UHGV virus genome: UHGV-1351772
Reading direction: 5' to 3' (one strand)
Source of the DNA: a virus
Length of the DNA: 64,000 nt
Below are positions 32,828 to 56,552 of the stretch, in pieces. Within the stretch, counting starts at the first letter, position 1; each line of letters starts with the position of its first letter. The notes under the pieces were generated by a model. It was not told the DNA's origin and made no database searches. It was given only the letters and a program-made list of their open reading frames with translations. Both the position numbers and the translations under genes were made by a program.

Positions 32828-35122
32828 TTATTTACCAGCAGCAGCTTTGCCTTCGCCAGCAACGTTACCTGCTACACCACCTTCGGTTTGTTTCTGACCG
32901 TTCTGTTCAACAGAAACATTGTAAGCCAGTTTTTCTTCAACCAGTTTGGTGATGCCTTTAACCCAGATCAGACCAGTGATCGGGCAGTGGCAGATGTGCG
33001 CGTTACGTGGCTGTACGGCCAGCTCTTTAGAGGTAGAACCGTTACGCTGAATGTTGATGTTGGTAACCATGATCGGAGACCAGAAGTGGTTACCCCAGTT
33101 CAGCACGTTGTAGGAACCATCGTCCGCAGTCGGAACTTTCAGGAACCATTGCAGACGACGAGTCCAGGAACCGTCAGCTGCGTTGTAGATACGCCAGCGG
33201 TCATCGTTGGTGGTGATCACTTCGTATTCGTAGCGATCGCCCAGCAGACGTTGGTCGCCCTGTACCAGCAGCAGCATAGATGCAGTCGGTTCGTCAGTTG
33301 CAATAACAACTTTCGGCAGAATGTCCGGATCGGCAGTGTACAGACGCAGCGCAGGAATGAAGCGAGATTCCTGGATAGCCTGAGTTACCTGATTACCGAT
33401 ACGCTGTACCAGGCCCTGACGAGCGTTGATCAGTGCATCTTTGGTATCCAGGGACTGTACAACTTCATCAACGTTGTAGTCAGACTCTTTGAACCACGGA
33501 GCAACCCAGTGACGTCCCAGACCACGAATGGCCGGTTTGTCCCACGGAGTGATCATGCTTGCAGCAGCGTTACGTACCGCTTCGGTGTAAGACAGCGTCT
33601 GAGTGATAGCCAGCTGTTCGTTACGGATGTTAACTGCGGAAATCAGGTCGTCCAGACGTTCGGTATCGTCGTATTCAACTCCAACCGGAGACTTGGTCAG
33701 GATCGGAGAACCGTATTGCAGTTTGTAGTTTTCTTGTTCCCAGATTGGGTCAAGCAGCAGACCCTGGGTACGACGGTTTTCGTTGGTACGAGTACCATCG
33801 AAGCGCCAGCCCATCAGTTCAAGTTTCAGACCGTCCAGGATAACTTTGCCGGTACCAGATTTGGTATCAACTTTGTTACCGGTAGCGTCGTACAGACCTT
33901 CGATTTCCAGTTTGTGACCAGCGATGTCAACTTTACCACCGAACTGACCGGTAGTGAACAGAGACATGTTGATGGTGATCACATAACGCAGGGTGTAGGA
34001 GTTCTGACCAAGCGCTTGCAGTGCCGGAATAGCCGCACCAGTCCAGTCGGTAGTTTTCGCGTTCAGAGAGAACGCAGTACGACGGAATTGCAGTACCAGC
34101 TCACGGCCATCACCTTCAGCAGGACGCTGGAAGGTTGCGAACTGCATGTCACGAACGTGCAGTTTGATGAATTTACCTGCTTTTGCTTCTTCGGTCGGTT
34201 TACGTACGGAAATCAGCAGGCTGCCCAGAGCACAACCCGGTGCGATTTCATCAGTTTCGTCGTAACCTTCCTGAACGATACCCGGATGCGCAGACAGCTG
34301 GAACAGGTTCAGAGTGTCTTTAGCAAAGCTCAGGTAGTTAGTCGGGTACGGAGGTACACGACCCAGGCGAACAGATTCGTTCGGTACCAGTTCTTCGCTT
34401 ACGAAGTATTCAGCGTTTTCACCGGTTTCCATTACGTAAGGAACGATGTTGATCGCTTCGTCCTGAAGAACGGTGTGGTCAGTCAGCGCTTCGTGCAGGT
34501 TACGACGATGATCTTCAACAACGTCTTTGGTCAGTAACGCGTGCATGACACCACGAGAAACGGTGGTCACTTTGGTACGTACGGTAATACCAACGTCATT
34601 GGTGTCAACGGTGATGGTCGGGAACAGAGTCTCAGCGAAACGAGACTGAGTTTCCAGAGCACGTACGTTCAGCGTCCAGGTCAGACCCAGGTTTTTGTCG
34701 TAATCTTTGTTGGTGTAGTATTCCTGAGCAACAACCATACGCTCTTTGCCCCAGTCGCCGTTACCAGCTTGGGAACCAGGAATCGCAACGTCCAGGTTAA
34801 AACGGCTATGGAATTCTGGCTTAGCGTATTCTTGCGCTACTTTTTCTTGCAGGTCCATACCGTGACCAGCAGCACCCAGAATCATTGCAGAAGCAACTTC
34901 CGCAGCGTGGGACATTTTCTTGCCGCCAGCAAACGCGTTTGCGTAGTGCTGTGCAGCATCGTCACGCAGGGTACCAAAAACTTTCGTGTTGCTACGTACA
35001 GACTCACCAGCAACGATGGTGTTCCACATTTCGCCAGCACTGTTGTTACTAATGACGCTTTGTACCAGCGAGTTACCAGCTTGTACGAGTTTCTCCAGAT
35101 TAGAGATTCGGGTATCTTTCAT
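32828..35122 (-). CDS. major virion structural protein, possibly jumbo-phage-type major capsid protein
   Basis: 764 aa, strongest host-like codon bias in window, strong terminator, N-terminal S/A/G-x-E motifs typical of prohead-protease-processed capsid proteins; assignment is inference. Confidence 0.45.
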   Translation of the reverse strand: MKDTRISNLEKLVQAGNSLVQSVISNNSAGEMWNTIVAGESVRSNTKVFGTLRDDAAQHYANAFAGGKKMSHAAEVASAMILGAAGHGMDLQEKVAQEYAKPEFHSRFNLDVAIPGSQAGNGDWGKERMVVAQEYYTNKDYDKNLGLTWTLNVRALETQSRFAETLFPTITVDTNDVGITVRTKVTTVSRGVMHALLTKDVVEDHRRNLHEALTDHTVLQDEAINIVPYVMETGENAEYFVSEELVPNESVRLGRVPPYPTNYLSFAKDTLNLFQLSAHPGIVQEGYDETDEIAPGCALGSLLISVRKPTEEAKAGKFIKLHVRDMQFATFQRPAEGDGRELVLQFRRTAFSLNAKTTDWTGAAIPALQALGQNSYTLRYVITINMSLFTTGQFGGKVDIAGHKLEIEGLYDATGNKVDTKSGTGKVILDGLKLELMGWRFDGTRTNENRRTQGLLLDPIWEQENYKLQYGSPILTKSPVGVEYDDTERLDDLISAVNIRNEQLAITQTLSYTEAVRNAAASMITPWDKPAIRGLGRHWVAPWFKESDYNVDEVVQSLDTKDALINARQGLVQRIGNQVTQAIQESRFIPALRLYTADPDILPKVVIATDEPTASMLLLVQGDQRLLGDRYEYEVITTNDDRWRIYNAADGSWTRRLQWFLKVPTADDGSYNVLNWGNHFWSPIMVTNINIQRNGSTSKELAVQPRNAHICHCPITGLIWVKGITKLVEEKLAYNVSVEQNGQKQTEGGVAGNVAGEGKAAAGK

Positions 35123-39113: not shown

Positions 39114-39257
39114 TTAACCACGACCAGTGCACTGTGCAACGGAGTTACCGTTGTCGATGCAAGTGTCGTAGCCTTTGTCGATGTCCAGATACAGGCAACC
39201 CAGAACAACAGCGATAACAACAGCGAAAATAGCTTTTTTGTGTTTTACAGAAATCAT
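39114..39257 (-). CDS. small lipoprotein-like peptide (47 aa), not in ORF track
   Basis: MISVKHKKAIFAVVIAVVLGCLYLDIDKGYDTCIDNGNSVAQCTGRG; AGGAG RBS 8 nt upstream; host-like codon bias. Confidence 0.4.
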   Translation of the reverse strand: MISVKHKKAIFAVVIAVVLGCLYLDIDKGYDTCIDNGNSVAQCTGRG

Positions 39258-46812: not shown

Positions 46813-46861
46813 TTCTATTCTCCTAAAGGTAATAAACTGGTCGTTAAAAGATTACAATGTA

Positions 46862-46888
46862 ATCTCACTAAGATAATATCTATCTGTG
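46862..46888 (-). promoter_or_regulatory. conserved promoter-like motif, copy 4
   Basis: tctcactaagataatatctatctgtga followed by AGATTACA/TGTAATCT palindrome. Confidence 0.4.
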
Positions 46889-46919
46889 ATTATTTTTAAT
46901 AGAAAAAAAAAAGAAAAGG

Positions 46920-46948
46920 GAGAACCACCCCATTACAAGGTGGTTCTC
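46920..46948 (-). terminator. rho-independent terminator
   Basis: gagaaccacc/ggtggttctc stem after ~20 nt A-run. Confidence 0.65.
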
Positions 46949-46966
46949 TTACTAAACAATCAGGGA

Positions 46967-48229
46967 TTATTTAGATTTTTCGTAAGCAGCGATACCTGCG
47001 GAGATATAGCCGTTCAGACCGCTGGCCAGGTGTTTCTGGGTAGAAGCAATAATTTTCTCATTAAAAGAGAGACTACGTTGAACACTGGTAATGTGGCGAC
47101 GTAACTTACGCACATTGTCGGTCAGTTCTGGTTTTTCATCGATCTTGACTTTATCGATTTCTTTCAACAGATTACCGATTTTATCTTCAAAGGACTTACG
47201 TGCGCTTTCGACTTTACGATAAGCCTGAACGTTTTTCTCGATCTGTTTACCCACTTCGTTGAAGAAGGCATTGATCTTAGCCAGTTCGCCAACAGACGGA
47301 GTTTTCACGCTGGTTTCAACGCTTTTCTCAGCTTCGACAAAGGTATAACTAAAGCCACCTTCTTCATCGTACTCGACTTTCGCAGAGACGTTGCCGAGAT
47401 GATATTCGATAACTTCTTTTTTGGCGATCGCTTCGAAAACTTTCTTCAGTTCTCCATCAAAAGAAGCATCGCCTTTAAGGGCTTTATCAACCATGCCAGC
47501 AGCATCAGTGGCTAAAGAAGGGACTTCATTACTATAGAAATTAGAAACTCTGTGCAGATCGTCTTTCAGTGACGGGATATCGTTGCCAACGAACTTGCCA
47601 TCGATAGACAGAGACTTGATAAAGCCACCAGAGATTTCATCTTTCTTCTGTTTGCCCAGCTTACGAATAACTTCATCGTATTTCTTAGCACGCGCCTGGA
47701 TAGATTTACCCTGGTTGTGGAATTTCAGCCAGCGATCTTTGATCTTACGACCCTGTTCTTTCAGCCAATCCCAGATACGACCAATGAAGGCTTTAATGTC
47801 TTCCCACAGGGATTCACGAGCAACCTGACGACGGTTACGAGAACCGTAGGATTCGTGAGCAACAGAAGAACGGTGTTCGAAGTTCCAACGAGAACGGATA
47901 GATTCCTGAGCAACGTCCAGCGCAGTCGCAGCGTCGTCCGGCATATCTTCTTCGGCGTCCATCGGTTCTTCACCGTCTTCGCCAGCACCTTCACCGTCAG
48001 CAGCAGCCTGAGCTTCATCCAGAACATCCAGCTGAGCGTCAGTTTCGTCGCCGTCTTCTGCCAGCAGTTCAGCGTCAGCGTCCAGAGCTTCGATCGGTTT
48101 GGTGTCATGCTCGATATCGGCCAGAGTGCCTTCTACGGATTCTGCTGGCAGTTCGATGCCGTCTGGAACTACAGTAGAAGTAGACTCCATAGACTCACGA
48201 GCAATTTTGTTTTTGTAGAAATTCGCCAT
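46967..48229 (-). CDS. abundant virion-type protein, tandem paralog 1 (420 aa)
   Basis: Shares N-terminus MANFxK..ARESME, central KKYxExxRKLGKQKKDEISGGFI and C-terminus GLNGYxxAGIxAYEKSK with 48312..49583; acidic N-terminal region; strong codon bias. Confidence 0.5.
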   Translation of the reverse strand: MANFYKNKIARESMESTSTVVPDGIELPAESVEGTLADIEHDTKPIEALDADAELLAEDGDETDAQLDVLDEAQAAADGEGAGEDGEEPMDAEEDMPDDAATALDVAQESIRSRWNFEHRSSVAHESYGSRNRRQVARESLWEDIKAFIGRIWDWLKEQGRKIKDRWLKFHNQGKSIQARAKKYDEVIRKLGKQKKDEISGGFIKSLSIDGKFVGNDIPSLKDDLHRVSNFYSNEVPSLATDAAGMVDKALKGDASFDGELKKVFEAIAKKEVIEYHLGNVSAKVEYDEEGGFSYTFVEAEKSVETSVKTPSVGELAKINAFFNEVGKQIEKNVQAYRKVESARKSFEDKIGNLLKEIDKVKIDEKPELTDNVRKLRRHITSVQRSLSFNEKIIASTQKHLASGLNGYISAGIAAYEKSK

Positions 48230-48248
48230 TTTAAGCTTTTCCTCTAAG

Positions 48249-48267
48249 GGGAACGTATTGTTCCCCT
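48249..48267 (-). other. inter-paralog hairpin (ggggaac aatac gttcccc)
   Basis: Lies between the two paralog genes without a clear U-run on the minus strand. Confidence 0.35.
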
Positions 48268-48311
48268 GATGATTTATTTCAAGAACTGTACGGAACTACG
48301 AATCTAAATGA

Positions 48312-49583
48312 TTATTTAGATTTTTCGTAAGCACCGATACCAGCACCCAGGTAGCCATTCAGACCGCTAATAACGGTGTTAGCAACATAGCTAACTGCGC
48401 GGTTCAGGGTCTGGTAGTTCTTAACAGACCAATCGGCAGCTTGACGTGCGTTACGCAGGCCATCCCACTTGCTATCGTCTTTTTCGTTGTTCAGCGCCTT
48501 AGCAGCATTCTCAGCAGCCTGTTGCAGCTTCACGATTTCAGAATCGTAAGCACGGAAATCTTTCAGTACGGCTTCGAAGCCTTTACCGATCGCTTCCAGA
48601 GCAGAAGCAGCGCCAGCCATTTCAGAAACAGACGGAGTTTTCACGTCTTTATCGTCAGAAGCGTCGCCGGTGCTCATGAATGCGATTGCAGTGAACTTGT
48701 GGCCGCCAGCCAGTTCTTTAGTACCAGCCTGAATGTAAGCGTTGCCCGGCAGTGCCAGCAGTTTAGACGCATCACCTTTTTCAAAGTTCGGCAGAGTGTG
48801 TAGTTTAGAAGCAGCTTTACCAAACAGTTCTACCGGCTGATCACCACGCATTGCCTTGAATGCGTCATCGTCACCTTTGGTAACGGCAGTCACAGCTTCA
48901 CCAGCTTGTTTTTCCAGAGCACCGATGGAACCTTTAGCTTTACCAGCGGTAACTTCTTTCGCAATAGCGATAGAGCCAGCAGCATCGAATTTACCTTCGA
49001 TAGACAGCTTGGTGATAAAGCCACCAGAGATTTCATCTTTCTTCTGTTTGCCCAGCTTACGCAGCATTTCCTGATATTTCTTCGCACGTTTCTGTGCGGT
49101 CTTACCGACGTTGAAATATTTCAGTTTCAGGTCTTTGATCTTCGCAATCACTTCTTTACAGAACTGAATGAAACGATCGTAAAGATCTTTCAGGGTTTCT
49201 TTCCAACCTTCCTGTGCAGCAGCAGTCATACCACGACCACGGCGATAGGATTCGCGAGCCAGTTTAGTACGTTCCAGGCACCAACGACGTGCGATGGATT
49301 CCTGTGCCACTTCGTGCAGGGCAACCGCTTCTTCCGGCATTTCTTCACCGTTAGCAACGGCTTCTTCCGCCTGTTCGATAGCGTCTTCAGTACGCTCGGT
49401 ATCGGCAGCCAGGGTTTCACCGTCGGTTTCCAGCTGATCGAGCTGACCGTCGATAGATGCTACGTCCGCAAGTTGGACGTCCAGGTTCTCTTCTGCCGGT
49501 TCAACGTTGCTGATACCGTCGATTACTTCATCGGCCGCTTCCATCGATTCACGAGCGGCGCGAGTTTTTGCGAAATTTGCCAT
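48312..49583 (-). CDS. abundant virion-type protein, tandem paralog 2 (423 aa)
   Basis: See paralog 1; AAAGGAAA RBS. Confidence 0.5.
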   Translation of the reverse strand: MANFAKTRAARESMEAADEVIDGISNVEPAEENLDVQLADVASIDGQLDQLETDGETLAADTERTEDAIEQAEEAVANGEEMPEEAVALHEVAQESIARRWCLERTKLARESYRRGRGMTAAAQEGWKETLKDLYDRFIQFCKEVIAKIKDLKLKYFNVGKTAQKRAKKYQEMLRKLGKQKKDEISGGFITKLSIEGKFDAAGSIAIAKEVTAGKAKGSIGALEKQAGEAVTAVTKGDDDAFKAMRGDQPVELFGKAASKLHTLPNFEKGDASKLLALPGNAYIQAGTKELAGGHKFTAIAFMSTGDASDDKDVKTPSVSEMAGAASALEAIGKGFEAVLKDFRAYDSEIVKLQQAAENAAKALNNEKDDSKWDGLRNARQAADWSVKNYQTLNRAVSYVANTVISGLNGYLGAGIGAYEKSK

Positions 49584-49642: not shown

Positions 49643-50203
49643 TTAGGGACGTGCGATTTTCAAAAACACTGCTAACGACGAGATCATGTCGGACAACCCG
49701 TTCGGGCGCGTCATCCAGCGTGCCAGCAGTTCATGGTCTGCATAAGATAAAAGACGTTTGCTACACTCAACGGATTGGTGAGCAGAGCCCATATTACGTA
49801 CAGTACCTCGGCGACCAAACGCAGCAGCTAATAGACGCGAGCCTAATGCACCCGTCTGTTCAACATTCTTCGTGTTACGAACATCGTTCATATACGACGA
49901 CAGCAAAGTCGACCACTGCCCTAACGTCACATTACGTCGCTTACCATCCAGCAAGAAATCTACACTTTCGTTATAAAACGTATTAAAGGTAAATCCGACC
50001 TGCGGATATTCGTCATATAATACTTGCTGCAAAGAATCAGCAGCCATCAGACGAAAGTACGGTAAAATAACGGCGGCGGCTTCCAGTGTTTTGTGAATAA
50101 CCTCGTCATCGTGTGTGTCGATTGGGTTTTTCGATAAAATCGACATGTAGGATTTAATGCGCTCTACAGCAACATTAAATTCAGGACTATCGTGCTCAAA
50201 CAT
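49643..50203 (-). CDS. hypothetical protein
   Basis: ORF track. Confidence 0.45.
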   Translation of the reverse strand: MFEHDSPEFNVAVERIKSYMSILSKNPIDTHDDEVIHKTLEAAAVILPYFRLMAADSLQQVLYDEYPQVGFTFNTFYNESVDFLLDGKRRNVTLGQWSTLLSSYMNDVRNTKNVEQTGALGSRLLAAAFGRRGTVRNMGSAHQSVECSKRLLSYADHELLARWMTRPNGLSDMISSLAVFLKIARP

Positions 50204-51166: not shown

Positions 51167-52273
51167 TTAAAGAACTGGCTGAGCGCCAGAGCGATACGCT
51201 TCGATGATTTTATTTACATCGGCGCTACCAGACTTCGATTTACTAAAGTCAGATTTATCGAGTTCCTGAGAGCCGTTCTGACCACGGGTATAAATAGTGA
51301 CGCGATTCCAGGTGGTGTCCACAACAACGTAGTAGACGGTCAAGGTGTCTTTGAACACACGCTGACGGATATTGAAATCGTCAAATTCGCCACCTAGCTG
51401 TGCGGTCAAACCGTCGATGGTGTCTTGAGAAACCACCATAACGGAAGAAGCGTTATTGATAGACGGTGCCAGAGACAGCAAACCAGATAACCAGTTACCG
51501 TTCTTCTTCTCCACCATCTTACGGTAATAACCGGACTTATCGCGATAACGGTTCTTACGATATTCTTCTACCAGGTCGTTACAGAACGCAATGTCTTTTA
51601 CGTAACTCAACGCGCCAACGCGTGCACGCAGCCAACGTTCCCAGAATGTTTTCGTCTGGTCACTGAACGCAATCAGTGTTTCAATTTGTTCGGTCGGTAA
51701 GGATTTCACATCCAAACGTAAACGCATTGGGAGTTCGACTTTATTACCGTCACGTTCGAATGTTACTGAGAACATCTTCCCGTTGGACAACCCTTCTTGA
51801 TCGAAAAGCTGTTTAATCGGATCACCTTTCCCACCACTGACTGAACCTTTTGATTCTTGGGCAACCCGTCGGGAAGATTCACCGACCGCAATGCCGATTT
51901 TATCGTATGACGGTAAACCATAACGGGCAGATTCGCCGACCGCAAGCGCTGCTAAGCGGGAACCGCTGCGGACTGCATTATCGAGCGCACTACGACGTGT
52001 GCTGACCTGATCCAGTGTGCCGATAATATCGACATCCGGTACACCAGTTAACAGGGAGATAGCCGTTAGTTGGTTTCCTGCCAGCAAAATTTGGATTTTC
52101 TCCAGAATTCCCGGAAGGTAATCTAAACCCAGCAGGCTTTGTTCGACTAAGGTAATGTGCTCGTTATAGAGCACTGAGTTAAATTCCTCCATCGACTCCG
52201 CACGTGAACGAAACAGCATGGGAAGTCTGGAGAGGAAAGAGACAACGCTTGTCTCAAACGTTTTTTCTAACAT
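51167..52273 (-). CDS. hypothetical protein
   Basis: ORF track. Confidence 0.45.
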   Translation of the reverse strand: MLEKTFETSVVSFLSRLPMLFRSRAESMEEFNSVLYNEHITLVEQSLLGLDYLPGILEKIQILLAGNQLTAISLLTGVPDVDIIGTLDQVSTRRSALDNAVRSGSRLAALAVGESARYGLPSYDKIGIAVGESSRRVAQESKGSVSGGKGDPIKQLFDQEGLSNGKMFSVTFERDGNKVELPMRLRLDVKSLPTEQIETLIAFSDQTKTFWERWLRARVGALSYVKDIAFCNDLVEEYRKNRYRDKSGYYRKMVEKKNGNWLSGLLSLAPSINNASSVMVVSQDTIDGLTAQLGGEFDDFNIRQRVFKDTLTVYYVVVDTTWNRVTIYTRGQNGSQELDKSDFSKSKSGSADVNKIIEAYRSGAQPVL

Positions 52274-52299: not shown

Positions 52300-53598
52300 A
52301 TGAGTGACGAGACAGATAAGAACGATCCGGGGTATGACCCGAATACTGATTACGACGATTCTCTCCACAATCCGAATAATGCGGACGCAGTGCCTTCGGT
52401 CGCAGGGTATTTCGACGGACGGATTAGTAATGCTAACCCCCCGACGCCTTACGACGCTAATACTGAACTTACGGCATGGAACGATCGTATCCGTCTTACT
52501 GTAGGTTTGGGTCTTGCTGCGCAGCGTTTGACCAACCCCTACATGGGGTTCAACCATATGATGGCGTCTAACCCCACGCCAATCAACCGAGAATACGGTG
52601 GACTAACTTTTATTACCCGGCCCGATTTTAACCTGTGCTACGACAACATTGCTAAGTCTCGTAAAATGTCGAACATGGCAATGCAGCCAAAGGACTCCAT
52701 AGATTATTCGATTTTAGCTGCGCTTGACCCCGATTTTGAACTCGGATTTACGGACGCACCTATGGAAAACGGTAGGCGGAAGAATCGCTTAGGTACGCCG
52801 TTTATGCCTCAAGTAAAATTCGATAATCTACAAGCGTTCATACCAATACTCAGTACGCAGCTGATTAGCCTTAGTGGTGCACCCGATCAATCTATTGATA
52901 ACTGGATGGCAAGTGAAGGTTTAATGCGTGAACAGTGGGGGATGGTTGACTCTACCCACGAAGTTAACAACAGCTTTTCCATCAGCATGTCATTAAACAA
53001 CCCCTATGGCGACCCATTGATGAAAATGATGGGTGTGTGGCTGGAGTATATGTCTGGTGTGAAAATGGGTAAATTCCGTCCGAAAATGCGTAACTCCATT
53101 CAACGCAGAATCGATTATCAGTCGCGAATCTACGGGATGCGTTACGATGCCTTAGGGAACATCACCCGTTTCTGGACGATTTGCGTCGCTTGGCCGATGA
53201 ACGATAACGCGGGACAAATGGCGAACGTTGATAACTCCAAACCGCAGTTAAACGACGACGTTACGATTACTATTAACTGGCAAGCTATCGGTGCGCGGTT
53301 TAACGATCCATTATACATGGAAATGTTTAACCGCACCGTTTCCATTTTTAATCCGGATATGCTCCCGCAGCCAGGCTCTATTCAATCGGGCAACTTCATC
53401 CCGATTGCTAGTGACCAATTAGTACCCATCGCGCCACAATTGCTGCCGTTGTTTAACTATTACGGTTATCCACACATCGATTCCGTGCGACGCAAACTTA
53501 CCTGGTATGTTTACCAGGCAGACTACCAACATATTCTCAAGAAAGCGGGATTACTGGATAACGCTAATGCCGCTTCACTACCGACAGGTAATAACTGA
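52300..53598 (+). CDS. hypothetical protein (432 aa)
   Basis: GGAG RBS; ATGA coupling to downstream gene. Confidence 0.5.
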   Translation: MSDETDKNDPGYDPNTDYDDSLHNPNNADAVPSVAGYFDGRISNANPPTPYDANTELTAWNDRIRLTVGLGLAAQRLTNPYMGFNHMMASNPTPINREYGGLTFITRPDFNLCYDNIAKSRKMSNMAMQPKDSIDYSILAALDPDFELGFTDAPMENGRRKNRLGTPFMPQVKFDNLQAFIPILSTQLISLSGAPDQSIDNWMASEGLMREQWGMVDSTHEVNNSFSISMSLNNPYGDPLMKMMGVWLEYMSGVKMGKFRPKMRNSIQRRIDYQSRIYGMRYDALGNITRFWTICVAWPMNDNAGQMANVDNSKPQLNDDVTITINWQAIGARFNDPLYMEMFNRTVSIFNPDMLPQPGSIQSGNFIPIASDQLVPIAPQLLPLFNYYGYPHIDSVRRKLTWYVYQADYQHILKKAGLLDNANAASLPTGNN

Positions 53599-56552
53599 TG
53601 AGTTCTACGACTTACGATACTTTGGCAAAGAACATATTGTTGTTTGCCCACCATCCGGCAGCGATGCAAACACTGCTCTTGAATCAGCTTCTGGATGTAG
53701 AAGACGCCGAAGGCCAAATAGTGTTACGTGACCCAACAGACCCTGTTGTTTATTTGGCGGAAATGGGGACAATGTTGGGCCATGCAACGCTTATGGGGTT
53801 GCAGGAATCAGTGCCAAAGACATTTCCATCGATGGCGCAAACGTACGATGACCTGTTCCGACATATGTCCGATGTGGACTACGTTGATGTGTTCGCCCAA
53901 CCTTCAACCACCGAGCTGTTGTTATTAATCGATGTTGATAGTTTAATCTCCAAGGCGTACCCTTTACAGATTGCGGGTGTGCGTAAAGTTGTTATCCCAC
54001 GAGACACAGTTTTCACGGTGTCAGGTTACACCTTTGCCATCCAGTACCCGATTGAAATCAGGGTACTTCCTTACGGTACCAATGAAAACCCGGCGTTTCA
54101 GGTTCTTTGGATTACCGAAACACAGTCACCTATTTCTCCTGTGTCGACGAATGCGCTGGATTGGGAGTTGACGTCGTCTAACACCACGGCCTCGCAACTA
54201 CTGGCAATCCATATCCCGGTCATGCAGTATGCGGTGAAAAACGAAAGTGACACCGTTGCTGGGAAAAATACCTTTGTCATGACCCGTCATTACACTAACA
54301 AATTTTTCTACGTAAGGGTATGGATGAAATCAACCAACGATAACAAGTGGGTTGAAATTCAGCATACGCACAGTCGTGACGTTTACGACCCCAACACCCC
54401 AACCGCGTTAATCCAGGTCGGTGACGGTGTTATACGGTGTACTATCCCCTCGATCTACATGGCGAAGAACTTGGTCAGCGGCGAAATTCGTATGGATATC
54501 TACACGACCTTAGGGCCTTTAAGTGTCGATATCTCGGCTTATCCGTCTGACGAATACACGTTCACGTTGCGTGATTTAAACGGCGAATATGACGAAAACT
54601 ACGTTAACCCGATTAAGAGTTTTTCCATCAAACAGATGGCTGCAAAAGCAGGTAAAATGTTGTCAGGTGGTCGTAGCCAGCTCACCTTCGAAGATTTACG
54701 TACACGTGTAGTCAATAACGCTGTAGGTGCACGAAAACTCCCTGTAACGGAGAAACAATTAGAAGCAACGGTTTCTGACTACGGTCTAACGTTGTCGAAA
54801 CCAAACGACTATGTTACTAGCCGTACATACTTCTTAACGGCACCGATGCTCGAATCGACAATTCCCAATGTCAGTTCTCCCATCGGGACAATCACGGCAC
54901 CGTTCTATTTCTCCTGGAATGAATTGGTTAATCTACCAACGGTAAAGGTTAACGGTAATCGCCTGACGATTCTTCCTGACACACTTTATCGGTTCACCGA
55001 CACCAGCTTGACGGTTGATGCGGAGATGACGGTCTTGGCAAAAACCATGCGTAAAGAAGATTTGATTAATGCGGCCAACGCTAATCGTTATCTCTTTACA
55101 CCATTCCATTACGTTGTGGATATCAACAACAAAGCCATTGACGTTCGTATTTATCAATTAGATAAACCGACGTTAAACTCCAAACGCTTTATCGCCACTA
55201 ACGTAAGCACGGAACTCAGTGTGGTAACAGCCGACTACACTATCGAAAAGACCGAAGCCGGTTATGTATTGCGTACCGTAACGAAGTCAGAGGCACCTTA
55301 TCAAGCACTGACCGACGATCAAGTTTTTGCACAGCTATCGTTCCGTCCACGTAACGCAGACAACACTTTAGCGTACATCAACGGTACGTTAGTCGGTAAA
55401 CAGGGTAGTGAGCGCGTATGGGAATTCCTGCTGGAAACCAACCTAGACGTTGACCGTAACGACGAATTAATGCTAACGAATACACGCATTAGTAGTAGCA
55501 CACCCACGGAAACGCCTGTACCGCTGATGACGGACTTCAACCTGTTCTACGGCTGCACCGGTTATTATCCTGGTAATTACGAACGTGCGGAAATGGATGC
55601 GTTAATCACTGCCCCGTCACGCGATGCTATTGGTATTACTCACGAGATTTTCAAAATCGAATTGGGTAAAGCAATGACGTACTACTGGCGTAAAGCGCGT
55701 GCTGTTACTGACAGCATTAACTACCAGTATTACGAAAAAGACGTGATGGCAACGTGGGAAATCGATGTGGTTAAACGCGATGAGAACGGTGTACCAATCT
55801 ACACCTACGACGCAGGTCGCACGCCACCACTTCAGATTACGTACGAGCATCGTAAAGGTGATCCTAAACTTGACGAGGCTGGACAACAGATCGTCCTACA
55901 TCGTGAAGGAGACTTAGTTAAAGACGAATTCGGCAATCCGAAAATTGCGAAATCGCGTTCTATCAAATTCCGTAGTGAGATGGCGGTATTCGATGCGCGA
56001 TATAAATTCGCGACGACGCCTTCTGCAAAATCGTATCTGAACGAGGTTATCGAAAACATCGTTAACTACGTTACGGTAATACTGCCAACTTTGAAGCCTA
56101 TGTTGTTAGAACGTACCGAAGGTTACTTTGTGCCGATTACAACAATGGGGTATATCGACGCCCGTACCGAGGACGGGGTAGTAACGCCTGTCCCTGCGGA
56201 AAACCAGTTCACCGTGCGTTATTACCTAACAGCTGCTAACCGTAATAACACCGAGCTCTTAACGCAGATTCGTAAGAAAACGTCTCAGGTTATCAATGAT
56301 TACTTGGGTAGTCATCTAACAATCTCTGCAACAGAAATCGGTAATGCATTGAGTGAAACCCTCGATGCGTCTATTATCGGTGTTGAACTCGATGCTATGG
56401 GACCAGATAAAGACATGCGTCTCTTTACCGTTGTTTCGGAAGCATCAAGAGCAACTATAGGTAAAAAGCTGGACATTGAGGCCAGCGGCGACATCGGACT
56501 TAAAGACGATATCGTTATTGTCTATAACCGTCACGATACTACCGCCGATTAA
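53598..56552 (+). CDS. large hypothetical protein (984 aa), possibly structural
   Basis: ORF track; no catalytic motifs recognised. Confidence 0.5.
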   Translation: MSSTTYDTLAKNILLFAHHPAAMQTLLLNQLLDVEDAEGQIVLRDPTDPVVYLAEMGTMLGHATLMGLQESVPKTFPSMAQTYDDLFRHMSDVDYVDVFAQPSTTELLLLIDVDSLISKAYPLQIAGVRKVVIPRDTVFTVSGYTFAIQYPIEIRVLPYGTNENPAFQVLWITETQSPISPVSTNALDWELTSSNTTASQLLAIHIPVMQYAVKNESDTVAGKNTFVMTRHYTNKFFYVRVWMKSTNDNKWVEIQHTHSRDVYDPNTPTALIQVGDGVIRCTIPSIYMAKNLVSGEIRMDIYTTLGPLSVDISAYPSDEYTFTLRDLNGEYDENYVNPIKSFSIKQMAAKAGKMLSGGRSQLTFEDLRTRVVNNAVGARKLPVTEKQLEATVSDYGLTLSKPNDYVTSRTYFLTAPMLESTIPNVSSPIGTITAPFYFSWNELVNLPTVKVNGNRLTILPDTLYRFTDTSLTVDAEMTVLAKTMRKEDLINAANANRYLFTPFHYVVDINNKAIDVRIYQLDKPTLNSKRFIATNVSTELSVVTADYTIEKTEAGYVLRTVTKSEAPYQALTDDQVFAQLSFRPRNADNTLAYINGTLVGKQGSERVWEFLLETNLDVDRNDELMLTNTRISSSTPTETPVPLMTDFNLFYGCTGYYPGNYERAEMDALITAPSRDAIGITHEIFKIELGKAMTYYWRKARAVTDSINYQYYEKDVMATWEIDVVKRDENGVPIYTYDAGRTPPLQITYEHRKGDPKLDEAGQQIVLHREGDLVKDEFGNPKIAKSRSIKFRSEMAVFDARYKFATTPSAKSYLNEVIENIVNYVTVILPTLKPMLLERTEGYFVPITTMGYIDARTEDGVVTPVPAENQFTVRYYLTAANRNNTELLTQIRKKTSQVINDYLGSHLTISATEIGNALSETLDASIIGVELDAMGPDKDMRLFTVVSEASRATIGKKLDIEASGDIGLKDDIVIVYNRHDTTAD

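Follow-up and report, generated by a model that had tools for sequence, protein, structure and literature searches.

The characterised counterparts of the two genes analysed here are gp53 and gp54 of Salmonella phage SPN3US. The genes lie in tandem in a 64,000-nucleotide stretch of the virus genome UHGV-1351772 (hereafter named the window) and encode proteins of 423 and 420 amino acids (aa). In SPN3US, gp53 and gp54 were described as 'paralog family A', similar to pfam12699, and each is estimated to exceed 600 copies in a capsid; by spectral counts the major capsid protein alone scored above them, and their conserved N-terminus with an A-x-E motif at residue 12 was already noted in the same work (PMC5694885). 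The S80 prohead protease gp245 was found by mass spectrometry (MS) to cut gp53 at ARE-12, AQE-95 and AQE-125, and gp54 at AQE-124 and ARE-137 (PMC10052503, Table 2 and Fig. 3), the mature N-termini being GWKETLKDLFER and SLWDDIK, respectively (PMC10052503). In the 'mottled' capsids of protease-deficient SPN3US the two proteins are the chief components of a T=1 inner shell; this shell is gone upon maturation, while gp53 and gp54 are still in the head (PMC7552025).

In phiKZ, cryo-electron microscopy located N-terminal fragments of gp93 (residues 14-84, after the E13↓S14 cut; arrows mark points of cleavage, established or predicted, throughout) and of gp162 on the inner capsid surface, as a fibre-like cement, and the helix-rich domains are released (PMC11297242). 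Virions of phage Goslar are reported to contain thousands of copies of proteins of the PF12699 family (internal head proteins of phiKZ-like phages), which are injected into the host, as are the PF12699 proteins of phiKZ, and the role of the family has been termed 'a key unsolved mystery' in the biology of chimalliviruses (bioRxiv 10.64898/2026.04.21.720040).

Orthology and paralogy of the gene pair

Both window proteins matched PF12699 (gathering cut-off, 27 bits), the 423-aa protein with 243.6 bits (E 5.2e-72) over residues 44-414, corresponding to positions 2-387 of the 387 of the model, and the 420-aa protein with 187.8 bits (E 4.7e-55) over residues 42-411. The PHROG family phrog_2497, 'internal head protein', was matched with E-values of 5e-147 and 1.4e-120, respectively. 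The 423-aa protein is 68% identical to SPN3US gp53 and 73-74% to gp70 of Erwinia phage Asesino, whereas the 420-aa protein is 63% identical to SPN3US gp54. A six-sequence alignment grouped the former with gp53 and Asesino gp70 and the latter with gp54 and Asesino gp71; orthology is one-to-one, gene order is identical in the three phages, and by GenBank locus tags the pair corresponds to SPN3US_0053 and SPN3US_0054. The pair is located in a head-gene cluster, beside an orthologue of SPN3US gp52 and phiKZ gp91, the latter a vertex-binding protein (PMC11297242). The order of a gp91-like gene followed by PF12699 genes is common to the window and to phiKZ, in which gp91 directly precedes the internal head protein genes gp92-gp97. 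These matches allow a confident annotation of the predicted products as internal head (ejection) proteins of the gp53/gp54 type, which agrees with the duplicated internal-head or ejection proteins proposed in a first-pass annotation of this DNA.

The same annotation had described two adjacent genes with acidic N-terminal regions, three shared blocks and different inserts, and all of these were recovered. Both open reading frames (ORFs) start with ATG (Table 1), and their products are paralogs that align end to end at 33% identity (BLASTP, E 9e-53). The shared blocks consist of the N-termini MANFAKTRAARESME (423 aa) and MANFYKNKIARESME (420 aa), which are identical at 11 of 15 residues, a central block KKY[QD]E[MV][LI]RKLGKQKKDEISGGFI, and a C-terminal block SGLNGY..AGI.AYEKSK. 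In the alignment the 420-aa protein shows an extra acidic insert of 16 aa in its N-terminal region, and the 423-aa protein an extra insert of about 25-30 aa in its middle module. Asp and Glu account for 24.8% of residues 1-125 of the 423-aa protein (net charge -19, pI 4.23) and for 27.3% of residues 1-139 of the 420-aa protein (net charge -27, pI 4.07). A tblastn search of 50,697 phage records found the family in 66 records, at 128 places, with two places in nearly every listed record. Since nearly every listed record of the clade holds exactly two, the duplication is older than the clade.

Recent gene conversion was considered as the origin of the similar N-termini and was rejected for the window pair, because only 31 of the first 48 nucleotides of the two genes are identical and the same residues are often encoded by different codons. 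Selection on the peptide appears to be the better account. In SPN3US, where the first 15 residues of the two proteins are identical (40 of 48 nucleotides), gene conversion may still have taken place. Given that the window proteins differ at 4 of these 15 residues, the N-termini of the pair are not identical as a rule, and conservation is limited to M-x-N-F...A-[RQ]-E-S.

The two pairs also share the tandem order and the neighbours (gp48-gp52 on one side, gp56 and dihydrofolate reductase on the other), similar lengths (425 and 419 aa in SPN3US), an acidic propeptide followed by a basic mature domain, and an extreme codon bias along with the capsid gene. The SPN3US proteins have been measured in virions, whereas those of the window are known from sequence alone. 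The window shares its gene order with SPN3US (Seoulvirus) and with the Erwinia phages Asesino and phiEaH2, and its DNA is about 76% identical to theirs. None of the deposited phages matches the region closely; their proteins reach 73% identity at best. Closer relatives (88-97% protein and 91% DNA identity) were found as 220-227-kb contigs in assemblies of Salmonella, Shigella, E. coli and Enterobacter isolates and in a metagenome scaffold, and two complete genomes hold such a relative as a circular 'plasmid' of about 222 kb (NZ_CP173450.1, E. coli; NZ_CP134650.1, Enterobacter ludwigii). 'Seoul-like' persistent jumbo phages in bacterial assemblies have already been described (bioRxiv 10.1101/2024.12.31.630880), and the lineage of the window, as judged from these relatives, matches them.

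The phiKZ proteins gp92-gp97, gp162 and gp163, and especially gp93, share with the pair the PF12699 family, the genome position after a gp91-like gene and the helix-rich C-terminal domain. They differ in number, since phiKZ has 5-8 paralogs at about 100-200 copies each instead of two paralogs, in the broader protease motif (S/A/G-x-E), and in the visible inner body of that phage, none being reported for SPN3US-like phages; the similarity is found by profile methods only. A more distant comparison is that with the internal proteins IPI-IPIII and Alt of T4, which follow the same logic: they are abundant, packed with the DNA, targeted through their N-termini, cut after Glu by an S80-related protease and injected (PMC5694885). 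However, their targeting peptides are of about 10-20 residues, as opposed to the 125-139-residue propeptides with four predicted cuts of the window pair, and no Pfam or PHROG match related the pair to IPI-III or Alt. The consensus of the T4 protease gp21 is L/I-x-E. The papers cited here state just that gp21 also cuts after Glu, and we take the T4 comparison as a functional analogy only.

Conserved cleavage sites and predicted domains

In order to analyse the conservation of the cleavage sites, homologues from a large protein database were aligned (61 sequences). Exactly four A-x-E positions were conserved across both paralog clades. In the numbering of the 423-aa protein these are E12 (A-[RQ]-E in all 61 homologues), E95 (A-x-E in 55, and in all 61 if Ser, Ala or Gly is allowed at P3), E111 (60 of 61) and E125 (55 of 61). 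P1' is occupied by Ser at E12, E95 and E111, and by Gly or Ser at E125. The ten remaining A-x-E motifs in the 423-aa protein were poorly conserved between the clades, and so were those remaining in the 420-aa protein, with a C-terminal A-Y-E, described below, as a partial exception. Thus, the paralog alignment across related phages bears out the protease-like motifs pointed out in the first-pass annotation. That annotation had likened the A-R-E at residues 10-12 to sites cut by the prohead proteases of T4-like and jumbo phages; the jumbo-phage part stands, ARE-12 being cut in SPN3US gp53, and the likeness to T4 is an analogy.

The five sites mapped by MS in SPN3US are all A-x-E in the window proteins, namely ARE-12, AQE-95 and AQE-125 in the 423-aa protein and AHE-126 and ARE-139 in the 420-aa protein, the last two aligning with AQE-124 and ARE-137 of gp54. 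The site equivalent to E-111 of the 423-aa protein was also mapped in SPN3US gp54 (PMC10052503, Table 2). The predicted mature N-termini are G126 (423 aa) and S140 (420 aa). The former begins with GWKETLKDLYDR (GWKETLK), matching the SPN3US semi-tryptic peptide GWKETLKDLFER, and the latter with SLWEDIK, compared with the peptide SLWDDIK of SPN3US (PMC10052503). From the aligned sites it is predicted that the main maturation cut is the one after E-125 or E-139, and not that at residue 12, so that the whole acidic region would be removed, with two more conserved internal cuts.

The four sites were also recognised in phiKZ. Alignment of the family profile with gp93 by hhalign (probability 95.8%, E 7.6e-9) placed them on SLE-13↓S, GME↓S, ALE↓N and SLE↓D, and all four gp93 motifs fit the S/A/G-x-E motif of the phiKZ protease. 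This link needed hhalign, since the 61-sequence profile failed to reach the chains of gp93 and gp162 in 8y6v. A-x-E is likewise preserved at the mapped positions of all other gp245 substrates with genes in the window, namely the orthologues of gp45, gp47 (two sites), gp50, the capsid protein gp75 and the portal protein gp81 (two sites).

Two side observations concern the motif. One additional A-x-E, in the C-terminal A-Y-E-K-S-K, is present three residues from the end of both window proteins (46967..46978 and 48312..48323); it occurs in 15 of 15 members of the gp54 clade and in 21 of 46 of the gp53 clade. On the other hand, the published site ATE-127 of SPN3US gp50 (L004 10908..12026) has no match in the GenBank protein, whose single A-x-E is ATE-145, while the single A-x-E of the gp50 orthologue in the window (51167..52273) is AQE-140. 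The stated mass of the gp50 propeptide, 15.8 kDa, fits about 145 residues and points to ATE-145; the mismatch is likely due to the numbering in the paper or to a different start codon.

The 423-aa protein was modelled with AlphaFold2 using the 61-sequence alignment as input (mean predicted local distance difference test score 82.6, predicted TM-score 0.81). In the model, long helices span residues 34-77, 84-100, 119-175, 319-366 and 372-417, and the middle module is composed of short helices and beta strands. Helices of 45-57 residues dominate, giving the elongated helix-rich fold of PF12699. Low-confidence linkers at residues 16-28 and 109-114 adjoin the sites E12 and E111. A search of BFVD with the model returned 105 matches at E<=1e-3, and every match with a name was a virion or internal head protein from phiKZ-like or other jumbo phages, including 201phi2-1, PhiPA3, Psa21, RSF1 and PhiEaH1. 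Sequence searches of solved structures gave nothing meaningful, either with the single proteins or with the 61-sequence profile. Homology to phiKZ gp86, of the capsid vertex-binding complex (PDB 8y6v chain G), was not established (11% identity, with a score no better than that of de novo designed bundles); the positional counterpart of gp86 in SPN3US is gp47, not gp53 or gp54 (PMC5694885).

Codon usage and neighbouring elements

Codon bias towards the preferred set of the host is familiar in phage structural genes. Codon usage was assessed in 73 non-overlapping ORFs called in the window by scoring synonymous choices alone, as the fraction of optimal codons (Fop). The optimal set was that of E. 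coli and Salmonella, taken from general knowledge, an enterobacterial host being inferred from the relatives of the phage. Fop was 0.861 (z 6.7) in the 764-aa capsid gene, 0.815 (z 5.8) in the 423-aa gene and 0.749 (z 4.6) in the 420-aa gene, as against a mean of 0.508 (sd 0.053, maximum 0.643) in the 51 other genes of at least 150 aa. CTG made up 83% of the Leu codons in the pair and 20% elsewhere, and the Thr, Ser, Ala, Ile and Gly codons were shifted likewise; the chi-square summed over 18 amino acids was 404 (df 41, p 3e-61).

A by-product of GC content or of amino-acid composition was rejected as the cause of this bias. The G+C content at third codon positions (GC3) is 0.451 in the pair and 0.453 in the other 70 genes, so the bias is codon-specific and no effect of base composition; the favoured codons include some ending in A or T (GCT, TCT, ACT, GTT and GAA). 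Since only synonymous choices were scored, amino-acid composition cannot cause it. The first-pass annotation had assigned the most host-like codons of the window to the pair, the 764-aa gene and a small gene (Fop 0.94), and this claim survived the synonymous-only test, whereas the accompanying statement, that most other genes are by contrast AT-rich at third positions, is contradicted by the GC3 values. No tRNA genes that might account for the codon usage were found within the window.

Of 44 SPN3US genes, the counterparts of the capsid gene and of the pair have the highest Fop values (0.851, 0.835 and 0.802). Other virion genes of the window, such as those of the portal protein and of the gp45 and gp47-gp51 orthologues, showed ordinary Fop values. 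Published counts agree with this pattern, with 1,560 subunits of the capsid protein and over 600 copies of either E (ejection) protein. The small gene, an ORF of 47 aa, also appears to be highly expressed, as judged from its codons. It had been labelled lipoprotein-like, and a hydrophobic N-terminal segment with a lipobox-like VLGC is indeed present in its product; however, the Cys of this motif is not conserved in SPN3US gp66, which makes a small protein anchored in the membrane the likelier reading, rather than a conserved lipoprotein.

Table 1. Features of the window discussed in the text, with their positions (arrows, points of cleavage, mapped in SPN3US or predicted here).
Feature	Position	Strand	Remarks
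Gene of the 423-aa PF12699 internal head protein, SPN3US gp53 orthologue	48312..49583	-	ORF, ATG start
Predicted acidic propeptide, gp53-like (codons 1-125)	49209..49583	-	Sites ARE-12↓S, AQE-95↓S, ARE-111↓S, AQE-125↓G
Predicted basic mature domain, gp53-like (codons 126-423 + stop)	48312..49208	-	32.0 kDa, pI 9.31, net +10
Gene of the 420-aa PF12699 internal head protein, SPN3US gp54 orthologue	46967..48229	-	ORF, ATG start
Predicted acidic propeptide, gp54-like (codons 1-139)	47813..48229	-	Sites ARE-12↓S, AQE-109↓S, AHE-126↓S, ARE-139↓S
Predicted basic mature domain, gp54-like (codons 140-420 + stop)	46967..47812	-	31.7 kDa, pI 9.24, net +8
Major capsid protein gene, 764 aa, SPN3US gp75 orthologue (78% identity)	32828..35122	-	AQE-134↓YYTNKD; ATE-130↓YYTNKD in SPN3US
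47-aa ORF, MISVKHKKAIFAVVIAVVLGCLYLDIDKGYDTCIDNGNSVAQCTGRG	39114..39257	-	Fop 0.94, highest in the window; SPN3US gp66 orthologue; phrog_8574 (function not assigned)
Upstream neighbour, orthologue of SPN3US gp52 / phiKZ gp91 (capsid vertex-binding protein)	49643..50203	-	PF25618 (PhiKZ_gp91), E 6.6e-07
Shine-Dalgarno-like AGGAA	49593..49597	-	About 9 nt upstream of the gp53-like ATG; read from the sequence
9-bp GC-rich stem-loop (AGGGGAACAATACGTTCCCCT) in the spacer	48247..48267	-	Directly 5' of the ribosome-binding site of the second gene; no T-run on the coding strand
Ribosome-binding site GAGGA, gp54-like gene	48240-48244	-	
Intrinsic-terminator-like hairpin, 13-bp stem (6 GC pairs) and long T-run	46905..46948	-	Consensus match; 19 nt past the gp54-like stop
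SPN3US gp48 orthologue	53598..56552		
SPN3US gp49 orthologue	52300..53598		

The two genes are separated by a spacer of 82 nucleotides. The stem-loop within it is a putative element of RNA stability or processing, or an attenuator that may set the ratio of the two proteins, while the hairpin after the gp54-like gene likely ends the transcription unit. In SPN3US and Asesino another gene (gp55 and gp72, respectively) adjoins the 3' end of the gp54 gene, and that of gp55 (251 aa) is codon-biased as well (Fop 0.71). No counterpart of gp55 was found at 46813..46966 of the window, a space of just 154 bp, terminator included; two of the closer relatives (L005 and L007, the latter being NZ_CP173450.1) contain a 58-aa ORF in a longer spacer where gp55 would be. 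Tail sheath and tube labels were considered for the gp48 and gp49 orthologues and rejected, the annotation of SPN3US placing the sheath at gp256.

Proposed role and alternative readings

Taken together, the pair very probably belongs to a jumbo phage like SPN3US and encodes its high-copy internal head ('ejection' or E) proteins, which would be cut by the S80 protease at A-x-E motifs. Both proteins would be made in very large amounts late in infection, from codons tuned to the preferred set of the host, like those of the capsid gene; the pair has good ribosome-binding sites and ends in what is likely a strong terminator. The precursors, of about 46 kDa, would enter the prohead by assembling together with the capsid protein; in SPN3US their counterparts form the loosely connected T=1 inner shell there. 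The S80 protease (the gp245 orthologue, encoded outside the window) would cut after E12, E95, E111 and E125 of the 423-aa protein and after E12, E109, E126 and E139 of the 420-aa protein, detaching and fragmenting the strongly acidic N-terminal region, and the basic helix-rich C-terminal domains of about 32 kDa would stay in the DNA-filled head and be injected with the genome. Part of the N-terminal fragment, starting with residue 13, may be left on the capsid wall as a cement, as are the fragments of phiKZ gp93 and gp162. Observed in the window were the family and orthology of the proteins, the conservation of their sites, the asymmetry of charge, the bias of codons and the predicted fold. 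Abundance, cleavage, inner shell, virion retention and injection come only from the literature on the orthologues, and it is from them that we infer the events in the virion of this phage. The very abundant virion components expected by the first-pass annotation are consistent with the more than 600 copies of each orthologue (PMC5694885), the codon bias providing indirect support in the window.

Several points weigh against this reading. The proteins of this phage are known from their sequences, which are 63-68% identical to those of the characterised orthologues, and both copy number and the exact use of the cleavage sites could differ at this distance. The actual host may not be one with the E. 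coli/Salmonella set of optimal codons. The number of A-x-E motifs in single proteins exceeded that in shuffled sequences only modestly (p 0.02-0.07 for the propeptides), and because these counts are marginal the case for cleavage rests on positional conservation. Genes for the S80 protease and for gp243 were not found by tblastn within the 64-kb window. Absence of the protease gene is expected from its distant position in SPN3US, and in a 222-kb relative, 91% identical over the pair, a protein with 81% identity is annotated as 'S80 family phage morphogenetic serine protease'. The cement role comes from phiKZ only, and residues 34-77 form one long helix in the AlphaFold2 model, whereas capsid-bound gp93 is extended.

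The inner shell raises the question of whether the pair might chiefly encode scaffolding (core) proteins, analogous to T4 gp22, the shell acting as a template for the T=27 capsid and then being degraded and expelled. This would account for the T=1 shell of the orthologues in protease-deficient capsids (PMC7552025), and it is consistent with the lack of an identified dedicated scaffold in giant phages and with the destabilised heads that follow the loss of gp53/gp54 incorporation (PMC5694885). The multiple conserved cuts, which would fragment each N-terminal region as in scaffold degradation, and an inferred expression on par with that of the capsid protein point in the same direction. However, the mature domains of about 31 kDa stay in SPN3US virions at more than 600 copies each (PMC5694885, PMC10052503), the family members of phiKZ and Goslar are reported to be injected (bioRxiv 10.64898/2026.04.21.720040), and the mature domains of the window proteins hold no conserved A-x-E sites, so that complete degradation is not expected. 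We consider a chiefly scaffolding function rather unlikely, while a dual role, scaffold-like and then cargo, is compatible with internal head (ejection) proteins and no true rival to them.

Regarding the mature domains, the charge asymmetry (propeptides with pI 4.1-4.2 and net charges of -19 and -27, mature domains with pI 9.2-9.3 and net charges of +10 and +8) and the position of the orthologues in the DNA-filled interior (PMC7552025) would also suit histone-like proteins, which mainly condense DNA or neutralise its charge in the head and are masked by the acidic propeptide until packaging; we judge this unlikely as their main function. That the ejected domains act on a membrane, as pore-forming or remodelling proteins like ClyA, BAR or ESCRT-III that help to build or line the early-infection (EPI) vesicle, seems highly improbable. 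PF12699 proteins are reported to enter that vesicle (bioRxiv 10.64898/2026.04.21.720040), and Foldseek searches of the PDB recurrently listed ClyA-family alpha-pore-forming toxins and IpaD, but only with E-values of 1-4 and TM-scores of 0.12-0.27. A Pfam BAR_3 match (E 0.0013) was below threshold, and the match of the family profile to yeast Snf7 (ESCRT-III; E 0.015-0.05) fell in the acidic N-terminal region (residues 8-84), within the propeptide, and is probably compositional, due to coiled coil. No significant structural or sequence similarity to these membrane-active proteins was found in these searches. Finally, each precursor might do two jobs, residues 13-95 (423 aa) or 13-109 (420 aa) serving as wall cement and the more than 600 C-terminal domains of each kind being delivered to the host and acting there on the EPI vesicle or on the injected DNA. 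This proposal, drawn by analogy with phiKZ, is quite doubtful at present; if true, it would give a function to the PF12699 family.

The pair consists of new orthologues of characterised proteins, and its interpretation as internal head (ejection) proteins is already known biology. As regards the role of the mature PF12699 domain, the locus is no more tractable than SPN3US, phiKZ or Goslar. What it adds to the literature is that four A-x-E sites are conserved in the 61 homologues and align with the sites of phiKZ gp93, that the identical N-termini of the SPN3US pair are no general feature, and that synonymous codons mark the capsid protein and this pair, and few others, as the most-needed products in two genera.

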